Shown here piece after piece: positions 780 through 39,360 of a DNA stretch of 45,122 nucleotides. The notes under the pieces are model-generated. The model had not been told where the DNA came from. It searched no databases and was given only the letters and a program-made list of their open reading frames with translations. This DNA is from a virus. Its lineage: Duplodnaviria > Caudoviricetes. The stretch spans positions 1 to 45,122 of IMG/VR virus record IMGVR_UViG_3300022173_000106; one strand, 5' to 3'. Within the stretch, counting starts at the first letter, position 1. Every line of letters begins with the position of its first letter. Both the position numbers and the translations under genes were made by a program.

Positions 780-2248
780 ATCGCGTTCAACTCGAACAGC
801 TCGCTGAGCTGAACCGGGCGCTCGAAGAAATCTCCGAGATGAAGAAGTACCGGATGATCGACTTCTTTCATCCGTATGCGAAGCAACTGGACTTCATGGA
901 GATGGGGGCGAAGCTGCGTGAGCGGCTGCTGATGGCTGGCAACCAGACCGGCAAGTCCGAGATCGGTGCCTACGAAGTCGCCTGTCACCTGACCGGCCTG
1001 TACCCCCATGGCTGGACCGGGCGGCGCTGGGACCGTCCTGTCAAAGGATGGGCAGCGGGTATCACGTCGATCTCGACCCGCGACATCGTACAGAAGAAGC
1101 TCTGCGGCGAAGCGGGCATCAAAGAGCTGTTCGGCACCGGGATGATCCCGCGCGAACTGATCCTCGACGTGTCCCTCGCTCGTGGCGTGACAGATGCCTA
1201 TGATACCATCAGTGTACGTCATGTCTCCGGGGGCGTCTCGATCCTGAAGTTCAAGTCCTACGAACAGGGACGGGCAAAGTGGCAGGGCGATACCCTCGAC
1301 TTCATCTGGTTCGATGAGGAGCCTCCGGCTGATCTGTACTCGGAAGGACTGACGCGCATCACCGCGACGATGGGTATGGTCTTCGTGACCTTCACCCCGC
1401 TGCTTGGTATGTCCGAAGTGGTCATGCGATACCTTCAGGAGAAGTCCCCTGATCGCGGTGTCGTCTCCATGACGATCAGTGATGCCCTCCACATCCCGGC
1501 AGATGAGCGATCCAAGATCATCGCAGGCTACCCGGCGCATGAACGCGAAGCCCGCGCCAAGGGTATCCCCATGCTCGGTTCAGGTCGCATCTTTGCGGTA
1601 AGCGAGGAGCTGATCCGTGAGAACACCCTTCAGTATGTCCCACCCCACTGGCCCCGCCTCTGGGCACTCGACTTCGGCATCGACCATCCGTTCGCTGCTG
1701 TCCTCGGCGCATGGGACCGGGACGCAGACATCATCCACGTTCTTCACGCCCTGAAGATGAAGGACGCGAAGATGCGCGAGCACGTTGATGCGATCATGGT
1801 CTATGATGGCAACAAGCGCGACAGCATGGGCAAATTCGCCGGGGGGAAAATCCCGGTGGCTTGGCCACAGGACGGGCATCAACGCGACCGTGGCGACCTG
1901 ACGCCGTATTCAAAGCTCTACCGCGAACAAGGTCTCAAGATGCTACCGACGCACGCCAAGTTCTCGGATGGATCGAACTCGACCGAGGCGGGTATCGCAG
2001 AGATGAACGAACGCTTCACCAGCGGGCGGCTGAAAGTTGCTGCTCATCTGGAGGAGTGGTTTTCTGAGTTCCGCCTGTACCATCGCAAGGACGGCCTGAT
2101 CGTGAAACTGAACGACGACTTGATGTCCGCTACCCGCATTTTGGTGACGGCCAAGCGGTTTGCTCAGGTTGTCAGCTATGACGACCGGGAAGGCAAGCCA
2201 AAGGTCGCTATTGCCAAGGATGTTGACTTTGACGTTTTTGATGTATAG
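767..2248 (+). CDS. terL: Terminase large subunit (P22-like)
   Basis: Walker A AGNQTGKS, Walker B FIWFDEEP, TFTPLLG coupling motif, nuclease ALDFG and NDDLMSATR. Confidence 0.96.
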   Translation: MDGIDRVQLEQLAELNRALEEISEMKKYRMIDFFHPYAKQLDFMEMGAKLRERLLMAGNQTGKSEIGAYEVACHLTGLYPHGWTGRRWDRPVKGWAAGITSISTRDIVQKKLCGEAGIKELFGTGMIPRELILDVSLARGVTDAYDTISVRHVSGGVSILKFKSYEQGRAKWQGDTLDFIWFDEEPPADLYSEGLTRITATMGMVFVTFTPLLGMSEVVMRYLQEKSPDRGVVSMTISDALHIPADERSKIIAGYPAHEREARAKGIPMLGSGRIFAVSEELIRENTLQYVPPHWPRLWALDFGIDHPFAAVLGAWDRDADIIHVLHALKMKDAKMREHVDAIMVYDGNKRDSMGKFAGGKIPVAWPQDGHQRDRGDLTPYSKLYREQGLKMLPTHAKFSDGSNSTEAGIAEMNERFTSGRLKVAAHLEEWFSEFRLYHRKDGLIVKLNDDLMSATRILVTAKRFAQVVSYDDREGKPKVAIAKDVDFDVFDV

Positions 2249-35747: not shown

Positions 35748-36175
35748 CAGCGATACCTCCTCCATCGCCGTCCGAAGACGAAACGGATGGCATCATCGCT
35801 GATCTCACAAGCAGGGTCTTCTATCTCGGCGTCGATGATGTGGTCCCTCACATTCGCCTTAGCATGGCGCAGCATGTAACGGGTCACTGTAAAGCGGCTC
35901 GCACGCATCATGCCGATAGCGTATATCTCAGCTTCAAATTCCTCACGCCACGAAGGCTTCTTTGCGTTGACGCCACAATGCCCGTTGCGAACGTGCCCGA
36001 CTTCGTGCAAGAACACGTAAAGCGTGTAGGGAGTTTTGATGGGCCTGCATCTGATCGTCCGGGTCGCCCCATTGGCTTCCCCATCACAGTCGTCTGGCTT
36101 TTCCTCAACCAGACGCCATCCCCTCGGCAAGTATCTGCTGACAACCTTGTCAATACGTTCTTGTTGGCTAAGCAC
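35747..36175 (-). CDS. HEXXH zinc metallopeptidase (ImmA/IrrE-like)
   Basis: FLHEVGH and downstream EE.EA..YA third-ligand helix. Confidence 0.72.
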   Translation of the reverse strand: MLSQQERIDKVVSRYLPRGWRLVEEKPDDCDGEANGATRTIRCRPIKTPYTLYVFLHEVGHVRNGHCGVNAKKPSWREEFEAEIYAIGMMRASRFTVTRYMLRHAKANVRDHIIDAEIEDPACEISDDAIRFVFGRRWRRYR

Positions 36176-36226
36176 TTGACTGCCCCTCTAAAAGTATGCC
36201 TATCTTGTGCCCTGTCGAGGAGCCAA

Positions 36227-38116
36227 ATGTCAATATCAAATCTGCATCAAGCTGCACTGGACTTAGCGCGAGAGGGCATCCCTGTCTTCCCCTGCGTTCC
36301 TAATTCCAAACGCCCGGCCTGCGAAAACGGGGTCTATGATGCAACAACTGATGAGGGTCAGATCAATGCGTGGTGGACCGAGAACCCAAGCTACAACCTT
36401 GCTATCGCCCCTGAACAGGCGGGCCTTTGTGTCGTGGATATTGACGGGGAGGTGGGTGAGGAAGCATGGTTTGACCTCCAGCTTGAGCATGGCTTCGCCA
36501 ACGATACCAAAGAGGTTTTCACCCCTCGTCAGGGCGGGCATCATCTATACTTCAGGGGGTCGCTCCCTCCCACAGTCGGCAAGATCGGCAAGAAGATCGA
36601 CACTCGTGGTGTCGGGTCATATGTACTCGTTCCGCCAAGCGTCACTTCGGATGGTATATATTCCTATGCAAATGACGCTCCGTATGCAGATGTTTCCGAT
36701 TGGCTCGTCGCGGCAGTCAACCGCCCGAAGGAACGTCATAAGGCTGCCACTGAAGAAAAGGACTTACCGGGCAACGTCTCCCGCGCGACGGCCTATCTAA
36801 AGAACCGCGAGACCGCCTACCAAGGCTCCGGTGCAGACGCCCGCACCTACGAAGCCGCTTGCATGATGCGTGACATGGGCCTGACCCACAAGACCGCCCT
36901 GACCCTCATGCTCTCCGAATACAAGCTCTCCCCAAAAGACGAACGCTTCCAAGAGTTCATCGCCCGCAAAATTCTCAACGCATATGACTATGCGCAGAAT
37001 GAGGCGGGTGCATGGGCGGTGGCTCCTGCGGAACAGATATTCGACCCCAACGTCCTCGACAGACTGGTGGCGGATAGTGAGACGCAGGAGCCTACTGCCA
37101 AGCCTCGGTTCTACTTCCTCAATGAAAGCGAACAAGATCATCTGCCGCCGCCTGCATGGATCATTCCCGGCTTGCTGGCGGATCGCTCGACATTCTTGCT
37201 CTATGGCCCCGGCGATAGCTACAAGTCATTCCTCGGCCTTGACATTGCGCTGGGGATCGCGGCAGGCGTTGAGACGTTCGGGCACGTACCTAAGCAGAAG
37301 CCAGTCTTCTGGATCGCGGGCGAAGGCATGACCGAAATCGCACACAAGCGACGCAAGGCGTGGCGCATCGCCCGTGAGATTGAAGGCGAGATACCCTTCT
37401 ACATGCTCGGTACGCCGCCCAGCGCGTCAGAGCCGATGCAGATTGTTGAGTTGGTCGAGCAGATCAAATGGCATTGCAAAGGCCAACGTCCGGGTCTTGT
37501 AGCTATTGACACATTGGCGAAGTTTATGCTCGGTCTGGATGAAAATAATCAGAAGGACGCCGGTTTGGCCGTCGCCGCCGCTGACTTTTTACGGGCGCAG
37601 CTCGGTTGCCCGATCCTCGTGATCCATCACAGTGGCAAGGATGAGAAGCGCGGCGCTCGCGGTTCAACGGCGATTATGTACGGCGTGGACGCGGCAGCAG
37701 AGGCTATTGCATCACATGAGACCAAGGCCGTCGCTGTCCATGTCCGGCGTCAGAAGGACGGCGAGCGCCGGATGGAGCCGTTTACATTTGAGGGTCGGGT
37801 GATTGGCCCCTCACTCGTCTTTTTCCCCACGGATGCTGCTACCTATCAGATGCAGGCCGGTGAGGATGATCCGGTTGCGCCCGCCAAGGTGGGCAAGGCG
37901 TTGCGTGATCTCGGCGCTGTCGGGCAGGAGAAGGGGGTAGTAACTGCCGTTCTGGCATCGCACCTGCTACCTGCCGACCCCAATGAGGCTCCTGAAGCCC
38001 GCCAGAGCCTCGTACAGCGCCTTTCTAAGATGCTGGGCGCTGGTGCCAAGAAGAAGCTCATCGCCTACACTGAAGGCACTGGGCACGATCTCAGGTGGTT
38101 CCTGCCCGAAGCCTAG
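36227..38116 (+). CDS. Bifunctional primase-polymerase fused to AAA_25 (RecA-like) helicase
   Basis: PVFPC...K.P, VVD.D, TP..G.HLYF, DTRG.G.YV..PPS; G..DSYKS, IDT, IHHSGKD..RG.RGS; start ATG 36227 after GAGGAG. Confidence 0.92.
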   Translation: MSISNLHQAALDLAREGIPVFPCVPNSKRPACENGVYDATTDEGQINAWWTENPSYNLAIAPEQAGLCVVDIDGEVGEEAWFDLQLEHGFANDTKEVFTPRQGGHHLYFRGSLPPTVGKIGKKIDTRGVGSYVLVPPSVTSDGIYSYANDAPYADVSDWLVAAVNRPKERHKAATEEKDLPGNVSRATAYLKNRETAYQGSGADARTYEAACMMRDMGLTHKTALTLMLSEYKLSPKDERFQEFIARKILNAYDYAQNEAGAWAVAPAEQIFDPNVLDRLVADSETQEPTAKPRFYFLNESEQDHLPPPAWIIPGLLADRSTFLLYGPGDSYKSFLGLDIALGIAAGVETFGHVPKQKPVFWIAGEGMTEIAHKRRKAWRIAREIEGEIPFYMLGTPPSASEPMQIVELVEQIKWHCKGQRPGLVAIDTLAKFMLGLDENNQKDAGLAVAAADFLRAQLGCPILVIHHSGKDEKRGARGSTAIMYGVDAAAEAIASHETKAVAVHVRRQKDGERRMEPFTFEGRVIGPSLVFFPTDAATYQMQAGEDDPVAPAKVGKALRDLGAVGQEKGVVTAVLASHLLPADPNEAPEARQSLVQRLSKMLGAGAKKKLIAYTEGTGHDLRWFLPEA

Positions 38117-38580
38117 CGGTCGATGTAGGCGTTAAGTCCCCTGACCTCGTGGGCATATGTTTCCTCAAGATCATAGAACTTGCCAAATAGAACCGCCCCT
38201 CCGATTAGGGTGTTCTCCTGCACAGTCATGGGGCGCAGGTGGGCGGGGTTGCAACATGATCGGGAGGTGCAGATCGCGGCGTCATGGTCGAGCACACGCC
38301 CGTCAGGGATGGGGCCATTGAACAAGACCCAGCCGAACCTATGGAGGTAAACACCCCTGCCTTGCCAATGGATTTTCTTGTAGCCCTTGCCGTCATCCCA
38401 ACCTTCTGCAATCCAACATTGATCCCTGTGCGGAACAATGCAGGACAGGCAATGGTGGTCCAGAAAAGGACGCAGGAGTGGCACACGCTTAGCCAATCGG
38501 CCCATGGCGAGGAGCGTCTGATCGTGTGTGATGATGATCGGTTTAATGGTCCTCATTTCCTGTACCGGGCATTCTTCCAT
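38113..38580 (-). CDS. HNH endonuclease
   Basis: CW...G....GY, HR..W....GPIP.G..LDH...C....CCNP.HL...T..EN. Confidence 0.88.
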   Translation of the reverse strand: MEECPVQEMRTIKPIIITHDQTLLAMGRLAKRVPLLRPFLDHHCLSCIVPHRDQCWIAEGWDDGKGYKKIHWQGRGVYLHRFGWVLFNGPIPDGRVLDHDAAICTSRSCCNPAHLRPMTVQENTLIGGAVLFGKFYDLEETYAHEVRGLNAYIDR

Positions 38581-38876
38581 GGTTTATCTTTCCCCAACAT
38601 CGCACGCGGCACACCCATGCTCGCAAGGACGCGCCGCTCAAGATCAGCAAAATCACAGACTAGGATCGTTTGTGCCGGACCCCCGCGTGGCGTGATCTCT
38701 TGCATCTCAGGCTCACTGCGATGCAGCCGCCCGGTGCCCATTCCCTCCATCCAAGGAGGCGGCTCGTGCCCTAGAAGACAATACCATTCAGCTTGATATT
38801 TCTTGAGCACTAAGCCCTTCGCCAGCGCGACAGTGTTGCGTTGGATGCGGGCGGCGAGTTGTTCTTTCGTAATCAT
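38553..38876 (-). CDS. 107-aa protein with collapsed PolA-like motifs
   Basis: TGRLHRSEPEMQEI and ILVCDFADLERRVLA; GAGGAG Shine-Dalgarno and ATGA coupling at 38876. Confidence 0.65.
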   Translation of the reverse strand: MITKEQLAARIQRNTVALAKGLVLKKYQAEWYCLLGHEPPPWMEGMGTGRLHRSEPEMQEITPRGGPAQTILVCDFADLERRVLASMGVPRAMLGKDKPWKNARYRK

Positions 38877-39052
38877 GTTGTCCACTCCTCATCCTCAATA
38901 AATATCCGTGGAACTTTGAGTGCATGGATTGCAACGAGGCGGTCAAGGTAGGGTTGTGCAGCCCTTCTGGCATCCTCCTGTATGCGACTGATGTGCTTTT
39001 TCAAACAGATTTCTTCTTCCGTGTCAGGGGGATAAAGAGTGTGAATTTTCAT
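38873..39052 (-). CDS. Small hypothetical protein
   Basis: MKIHTLYPP...; ATGA-coupled at both ends. Confidence 0.6.
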   Translation of the reverse strand: MKIHTLYPPDTEEEICLKKHISRIQEDARRAAQPYLDRLVAIHALKVPRIFIEDEEWTT

Positions 39053-39360
39053 GCTGTCCACTCCTCGACCGGCGCGGCCTGCCCATGCCAGCGCCATCGT
39101 TTATTGATTTTGCCGTAGGCTCTGAAGACCTCGCCGTCATGGGTCGCCATTGCGTTCGGCATCCACTTGGCAAGTTTCATCAGGACCGACGCGCAGGCAT
39201 CAACGCCGTCCTCTGAGCAGATCGCAGCGGCCAAGCCACGAGTGCCCAGAATGGTCGTCGTCGGCTCCGCTGTCAGGAACTCACGCAGCGCCGCCTCAAC
39301 CGCTGCATTGCGTTTGCGCCAGTCGAGTTTTTCGACGGTGCTCCATTCAAGCTTGGTCAT
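39049..39360 (-). CDS. Hypothetical protein
   Basis: MTKLEWST..., tight packing with neighbours. Confidence 0.6.
   Translation of the reverse strand: MTKLEWSTVEKLDWRKRNAAVEAALREFLTAEPTTTILGTRGLAAAICSEDGVDACASVLMKLAKWMPNAMATHDGEVFRAYGKINKRWRWHGQAAPVEEWTA

Follow-up and report, generated by a model that had tools for sequence, protein, structure and literature searches.

DSAD1 is a phage mimic that is able to block a sensor pocket, as described in PMC10973363. For Bodo saltans virus (BsV), catalytic-domain fragments in ankyrin-repeat ORFs were proposed as decoys in PMC5871332. A host defense that senses polymerases, which an earlier note on the present DNA had invoked for its decoy reading, offered next to that of a dominant-negative binder of a Pol I partner, has also been described: according to passages of PMC13581612, the STAND sensor Avs19 responds to family A polymerases, required their core domain, and was activated independently of the catalytic Asp. 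Avs19 is regarded here as a candidate host-side target, and no inhibitor, decoy, or mimic of it was found in those passages. A literature search, for which most subscription papers were out of reach, gave no published description of phage proteins of the kind examined here, in which two short motifs of a family A DNA polymerase are carried by a non-polymerase ORF.

The P0001 Gene and Its Surroundings

The window, namely the whole 45,122-nt stretch of DNA that was analyzed, is a 45-kb phage record rated complete. P0001, a 107-aa ORF containing the polymerase-motif cassette, is located at 38553..38876 on the minus strand and is a singleton as a whole protein. The earlier note had described it as an ORF with a good ribosome-binding site (RBS) and ATGA coupling, which agrees with what is read from the sequence. 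A Shine-Dalgarno-like GAGGAG (38885..38890, minus strand) is placed 8 nt 5′ of the ATG, and the ORF overlaps its neighbors at both ends. The stop codon (38875-38873) of a small upstream ORF (38873..39097, minus strand) overlaps the P0001 start as ATGA, and the HNH endonuclease gene downstream (38113..38580, minus strand; PF13392, E = 1.6e-10) contains an in-frame ATG at 38556 that forms a further ATGA overlap with the P0001 stop. P0001 lies among small ORFs, between the record end and the genes for primase, helicase, and polymerase. It may be an early gene, judging by this position among the terminal small ORFs and by its RBS; promoter-like sites numbered 5 versus 4.0 by chance, which is no excess. 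The phage also encodes its own full-length family A DNA polymerase, P0002 (28024..30066, minus strand; phrog_17, E = 4e-94; PF00476), of which the nearest annotated polymerases are only 33–36% identical. A primase-polymerase/AAA gene at 35840-38116 is the sole long plus-strand gene in this arm and converges on the HNH gene; its inversion is common to six relatives, and the HNH gene was not found at those loci. The place of the small-ORF cluster is occupied in relatives by tandem-repeat proteins with 11-residue units (L190:10-594 and L191:1-819, both plus strand).

Copies of the Thr-Gly-Arg Loop and Motif A

P0001 begins with an N-terminal scaffold (residues 4–35; 38772..38867, minus strand), for which one long helix was predicted by AlphaFold2 and no relatives were found. 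It is followed on the same strand by block 1 (residues 48–63; 38688..38735), a copy of the family A Thr-Gly-Arg loop that scored 16.5 bits, by a linker (38667..38687) that is approximately 10–12 residues shorter than in bacterial PolA, and by block 2 (residues 71–85; 38622..38666), a copy of motif A that scored 14.2 bits. Block 1 begins at Thr48 (38735), the Asp75 of motif A is located at 38654, and Glu80 and Arg82 are retained. Glu57 and Glu60 of block 1 replace Asn residues of bacterial PolA, while Asp78 and Arg81 of block 2 replace its Gln and Leu. These scores were obtained with position-specific matrices made from 46 real family A polymerases (35 bacterial, 11 phage). The two blocks together gave 30.7 bits, a sum reached by 0 of 1000 shuffles (maximum −2.1), and the score of either block was reached by none of 3000 shuffles of P0001. 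Among the 595 six-frame segments of the window, P0001 ranked second after P0002 (94.3 bits) and 40 bits above the third (−9.9 bits), and the cassette is present as a single copy. Because no shuffle reaches either block or their sum, and because P0001 stands far above the third segment, its likeness to family A polymerases is not a product of chance. The distance from Thr to Asp is 27 residues in P0001, 39–40 in bacterial PolA, and 73 in P0002. The scores and this spacing bear out the earlier description of both motifs as standing in order, with the catalytic Asp and the E.R pair kept and the linker shortened, and the comparison with shuffled sequence that had been proposed as a check likewise came out in its favor, as shuffles scored far lower. 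Its proposed profile search against PF00476 gave a divided result: the purpose-built matrices scored beyond chance, while the library profiles stayed below threshold (PF00476, 10.4 bits, E = 0.3; phrog_17, E = 0.047), with their Pfam and PHROG matches covering residues 47–94.

P0001 does not qualify as a family A polymerase, since motif A with its Asp is present without motif B, motif C, or a palm fold, and the PF00476 score of 10.4 bits is below the cut-off of 34.3 bits. The best scores in P0001 for motif B and for motif C, which contains the second metal ligand, were −16 and −11 bits, in agreement with their absence as noted earlier. AlphaFold2 with a 9-row alignment gave a model with a pTM of 0.26, comprising a helix at residues 4–35, a coil over block 1, and a helix at residues 76–86; this model contains no strands and no palm fold, and does not bring the blocks together. 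The expression "miniature polymerase" therefore says too much, since no palm fold is modeled and what is conserved is a cassette of approximately 45 residues and not the protein. A Pfam search gave no match to ankyrin repeats in P0001.

A broken polymerase gene or a contig-end fragment was also considered and rejected. BLAST of P0001 to polymerase gave only 32 bits over 47% of its length, no further polymerase-like segment was present among the 595, and the gene has its own RBS and coupled neighbors. The mean BLOSUM sum of block 1 was 40 against bacterial PolA, 46 against the Hendrix phage polymerase, and 2 against P0002, so that the earlier statement that the TGR segment is nearer to bacterial PolA than to the phage's own polymerase (40 versus 2) was correct. 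Block 2 fits bacterial PolA and P0002 about equally (31 versus 34). The DNA identity of the two blocks to the phage's own polymerase gene was 18/36 and 16/42. On the basis of this low identity and of the block 1 scores, P0001 is not a piece of P0002, and a recent duplication from the P0002 gene was rejected.

Occurrence of the Cassette in Other Phages

Searches with the whole P0001 protein matched only P0001 itself (2 candidates), none of 14 stretches of viral contigs, and, among 122 metagenome candidates, only the source window. An Atlas feature search gave no usable match for P0001 or P0010. An insensitive first look at the five nearest phages, whose polymerases are 54–62% identical, did not detect the gene, and a pattern scan of their whole records, which caught the real polymerase in only 3 of the 5, gave no small ORF with motif A. 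An unseeded phmmer search of 1.84 billion proteins detected P0130 (87 aa, E = 4.4e-5), which is identical to P0001 at 25 of 50 positions over the cassette, has a nearly alike linker, and has unrelated ends. Three other phmmer matches (P0128, which was inspected, P0129, and P0131) were excluded as chance similarities of proteins that are rich in repeats or very long, and H99 and H111 were also judged to be chance. When the cassette was searched by tblastn in annotated phages, non-polymerase ORFs were detected in Seuss, Alpheus, and Pan1, and then in Nerthus, KPP10, Palo, and R5C. Cultured carriers include an E. coli siphophage group, Caulobacter phage Seuss, Pseudomonas phages Alpheus and Nerthus, and Dinoroseobacter phage R5C, so that the class is open to direct test.

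When motif A was searched with a degenerate pattern requiring an acidic fourth residue, 38 viral loci were obtained, none of them within a polymerase, and 120 cellular loci, none of which is a polymerase and which are mainly ordinary helices. The bare 11-residue pattern was therefore rejected as a marker by itself. At the ten columns that the search had not fixed, 21 viral lineages were more PolA-like than 88 cellular lineages (p = 4.5e-5), and block 1 exceeded 5 bits in 3 of the 21 and in none of the 88. Pieces of motifs B and C are obvious by eye in some carriers; they were not enriched in viral over cellular matches (p = 0.43 and 0.14) and hence were not counted as evidence. False matches to the motif A pattern came chiefly from an isoleucyl-tRNA synthetase-like N-terminus, in most cases with Pro at position 3, in L066, L073, L078, L083, and further cellular loci. 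Short motif A ORFs in the cellular genomes L156, L158, and L171 resemble prophage members of the cassette class.

Searching separately for block 1 by itself detected 119 loci, which form 49 groups, 9 of which have a downstream motif A above 8 bits; these comprise 5 real polymerases and 4 short non-polymerase ORFs. The L254/L274 family, in which the block 1 pattern occurs in a conserved helical protein, was regarded as a chance match and assigned to the controls. A block 1-like stretch around position 8669 of L198 (plus strand; relative G001) opens a 66-codon segment with no start codon before it and is probably an off-frame chance match. Profile searches gave 12 matches of 658 candidates and 157 of 2609, of which the best 120 of the 157 were used. 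Of 125 proteins, 55 were excluded by BLAST and a further 9 on visual inspection because they are fragments of polymerases, which left 61. At least 32 proteins contain both blocks by a strict pattern, and they fall into at least 22 unrelated scaffold clusters, of which 15 contain no seed sequence. Together with P0130, which was found without a seed, these clusters answer positively the question, raised in the earlier note, of whether relatives keep both blocks. Of 21 cases in forward order, 14 have the blocks 23–34 residues apart; one of the 22 representatives shows the reverse order, as do P0034, P0067, P0111, L255, and L366 by visual inspection. Furthermore, a profile built from 18 small-protein stretches only matched 73 PDB sequences at E ≤ 1. 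Among the matches listed (60 of the 73), all are family A polymerases, the best being Klenow (E = 2.7e-11), whose alignment has a 10-residue gap in the linker. What is conserved is a cassette of approximately 45 residues, not the protein as a whole.

The scaffolds differ in kind. A gene that precedes the RNA polymerase gene in five Uliginvirus genomes combines a shared C-terminal part with a variable insert, which is missing in Ulina01, consists of motif A alone in Nerthus, and contains motif A with a second piece in two Alpheus records. The insert of Achelous consists of that second piece alone, which we take to be motif C of a single-subunit RNA polymerase. On this one scaffold, pieces are thus gained and lost. 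Elsewhere, the motifs are joined to the N-termini of MazG-like and SMC-like proteins or lie in a frame that overlaps a primase gene. A MazG-like pyrophosphatase is extended N-terminally by the cassette, or by motif A alone, in L002:2492-2670 (plus strand; Seuss gp80), L006:2381-3331 (plus strand), and L008, with a second Met where the enzyme part begins. In the provirus L255 (around 800-1100, plus strand), motif A precedes block 1 in an extension of what appears by eye to be an SMC/SbcC-like ATPase C-terminal domain. A 280-codon frame with motif A and a block 1-like piece lies over the primase gene in L013:627-1472 (plus strand; Rhizobium phage Palo) and L035:1168-2004 (plus strand), and is possibly an overprinted gene; in Palo, its extra piece is, we assume, an RNA polymerase motif C.

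In L017:1384-1650 (plus strand) and 17 related loci of E. coli siphophages of about 43 kb, motif A is placed in an N-terminal extension overlapped by another open frame, and is followed by pieces that resemble terminase Walker A/B by eye and, in some, by polymerase motif C (8.7 bits). Terminase- and helicase-like pieces beside cassettes in carriers are so labeled by eye, as our assumption. L290 (around 900-1500, plus strand), on a record shared with the polymerase locus L194, contains a 200-aa ORF with block 1 and a motif C-like piece, and a further piece that we take to resemble the 3′-5′ exonuclease III motif. The N-termini of the block 1 carriers P0012, P0065, and P0068 match the C-terminal end of the rIIB family (phrog_2886, E = 2.5e-6 for P0012).

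Similar residue changes recur across these scaffolds. Among 22 representatives, the first Asn position of block 1 is Glu in 10 and Asn in 4, and the second is Glu or Asp in 11; in motif A, position 4 is Asp or Glu in 12 and position 7 is Arg or Lys in 11. P0001 bears all four recurrent changes (two in each block). These trends are partly built in, because the seed sequences favor them, and position 4 of motif A is not always acidic. A real actinophage polymerase clade has a native Glu at the first Asn position. The L261 group (35 loci), L256, L258, L306, and L360 are real phage polymerases with Glu for Asn in block 1 and Pro for Arg in motif A. In 10 loosely clustered pairs, identity was 126/189 within the blocks versus 497/1004 outside, and it was nearly equal in two close pairs; the higher identity in the blocks may be taken as modest support for selection. 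Codons for the same cassette residues differ freely among lineages, which points to the protein and not to the DNA. A codon test in the 18-locus E. coli siphophage group gave 2 amino-acid versus 4 synonymous states in 11 motif codons and 17 versus 9 in 39 flanking codons. Both counts were discounted because these positions had been constrained by the search and because a second, overlapping frame is present.

A full-length family A polymerase frame was present in 28 of 38 carrier records, namely in 20/20 records at least 90% complete, in 4/4 named isolates, and in 4 partial records. The remaining 10 are at most 65% complete, and 5 of them match only through the small ORF. Polymerase was found in 2 of 36 control records with chance-like pattern matches and in 0 of 5 complete ones; carriers and controls had been sorted by eye before the polymerase search, the controls are less complete, and these counts ignore relatedness. 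In complete genomes, the cassette occurs only alongside a full-length family A polymerase. Since it recurs on unrelated scaffolds and its carriers encode a full-length polymerase, the cassette is a recurring linear-motif module of PolA phages and not a mini-enzyme.

Discussion

We tentatively prefer, at somewhat less than even confidence, to view the P0001 cassette as a competitive decoy, one that would engage a host sensor such as Avs19 in place of a phage family A polymerase. P0001 would be a non-catalytic small protein, presumably made early and in excess, that displays the approximately 45-residue cassette of two palm motifs. The exposed motif A helix and the flexible block 1 could bind the sensor sub-sites that are used on the polymerase palm, and a cassette without the whole fold needed for sensor activation might then occupy the sensor without firing it. 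The charged residues at enzyme-buried or DNA-facing positions may help the free peptide to stay in solution without binding DNA. One scaffold could be exchanged for another, with P0002 as the presumed trigger. In favor of this decoy proposal, the cassette exceeds chance, is carried by many scaffolds, and is accompanied by a polymerase in all complete carriers; that is, the phage of P0001 encodes the presumed sensed protein, as do the 20/20 complete carriers. The gene was also not found in five close relatives, as is the case with accessory genes. Against it, Avs sensors read folded cores, block 1 is unlike P0002 (BLOSUM 2 versus 40), and a mimic could trigger a sensor rather than block it. No confident complex model of Avs19 with polymerase was obtained, as stated in the available passages of PMC13581612.

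The same association with polymerase would be expected if the cassettes were debris of polymerase genes, that is, functionless pieces captured by recombination at the most conserved stretches and tolerated in frame within expressed accessory genes. Every complete carrier has a polymerase gene as a possible source, most carriers are singletons, conservation over the flanks is modest, and the loss of the P0001 gene from view in the five relatives and the 120 chance matches of the bare 11-residue pattern fit such an origin as well. It is difficult to reconcile with debris, however, that only the two most conserved blocks are kept, that the linker was cut to a similar length many times, that the order is reversed in some, that similar charged replacements recur across scaffolds, and that the motif is encoded in frames overlapping other genes as well. 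The DNA identity to the P0002 gene (18/36 and 16/42) argues in the same direction, and we consider debris unlikely, yet the foremost of the alternatives.

Scarcely more improbable is that the cassette acts on a polymerase or its partner, binding host Pol I, the polymerase of a competing phage, or the phage's own replisome, and redirecting or blocking synthesis by fragment swapping or partner titration. This would account for a block 1 that matches bacterial PolA and another phage polymerase clade instead of P0002, and for conservation at the protein level. However, block 1 and motif A of family A polymerases face the active-site cleft rather than known partner surfaces, and targeting of Pol I would not require the carrier's own family A polymerase, which 20/20 complete carriers encode. 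According to PMC13689553, the Hachiman/AbpAB defense needs host Pol I, which co-purifies with AbpAB. This would favor such a target, but the requirement apparently points to the 5′-3′ exonuclease domain, which is absent here.

It is very improbable that the cassette acts at the nucleic-acid level, whether DNA or RNA, for instance by mimicking the target of homing endonucleases that cleave conserved codons of the polymerase, or as a scar left by repair after such cleavage. Homing endonucleases target conserved codons of essential genes, and an HNH gene is coupled directly downstream of P0001. Such targeting is also stated for BsV in PMC5871332. A link between the cassette and the HNH neighbor was nevertheless rejected, as no relative of it was present in 39 analogue loci; moreover, codon usage differs freely between lineages, all 11 analogue ORFs inspected are in frame, 10 of them are preceded by an in-frame ATG that in most cases follows an RBS-like site, and a spare cut site would presumably harm the genome and not protect it. 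Least credible is a small nucleic-acid- or metal-binding module that reuses primer-template contacts of the polymerase, which would suit the retained Arg50, Asp75, and Glu80 and the basic C-terminus of P0001 but not the acidic residues at the block 1 Asn positions, the lack of a predicted fold joining the blocks, or the absence of motif C with the second metal ligand.

The decoy proposal can be widened, with more doubt than attaches to P0001 itself. PolA phages may repeatedly have evolved a transferable cassette of unchangeable active-site motifs, which was grafted, shuffled, and overprinted onto unrelated genes to saturate motif-reading sensors, as a branch of a general epitope-decoy strategy that includes RNA polymerase, terminase, and helicase motifs. 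If so, bacterial receptors would read short linear epitopes of core phage enzymes. Although widespread, the class escapes annotation, since its members individually score below the family thresholds and sit on unrelated scaffolds. Should it be a decoy, it would offer a sequence-searchable counter-defense, a bait for sensors, and a map of the enzyme epitopes read by bacteria; if it is debris, it would represent a recurring route by which accessory genes arise from conserved motifs.

Compared with family A polymerases (PF00476; Klenow, PDB 1kln/8oo6), both cassette blocks align to the palm in the right register, and P0001 keeps the catalytic Asp with the following Glu and Arg. Unlike these enzymes, P0001 is 107 aa in length and is without motif B, motif C, fingers, thumb, exonuclease, and a predicted palm fold. 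Six unannotated PHROGs (phrog_8775, 30952, 24950, 31731, 26890, and 12116) match class members or the cassette, with phrog_8775 matching P0114 fully; they are of unannotated function or bear a "DNA polymerase" label at 81 positions, and P0001 matches only phrog_12116, weakly (E = 0.17). The proposed BsV decoys belong to a eukaryotic giant virus and to one expanded ankyrin family, as given in PMC5871332, whereas the bacteriophage cassette is single copy, has no ankyrin repeats, and consists of 10–16-residue motifs on at least 22 unrelated scaffolds. DSAD1, the inhibitor of DSR2, is a small phage mimic of a sensed phage protein and sits in the sensor pocket, which is the mode proposed for P0001; according to PMC10973363, DSAD1 was tested as an inhibitor of a named sensor, whereas the mimicry of P0001 is read from sequence motifs on interchangeable scaffolds. 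The cassette class may hence be an undescribed one, being neither a family A polymerase nor of the BsV ankyrin type, and may work in a DSAD1-like manner. New here are the definition of the two-block cassette, its census with controls, and its link to the carriage of a family A polymerase.
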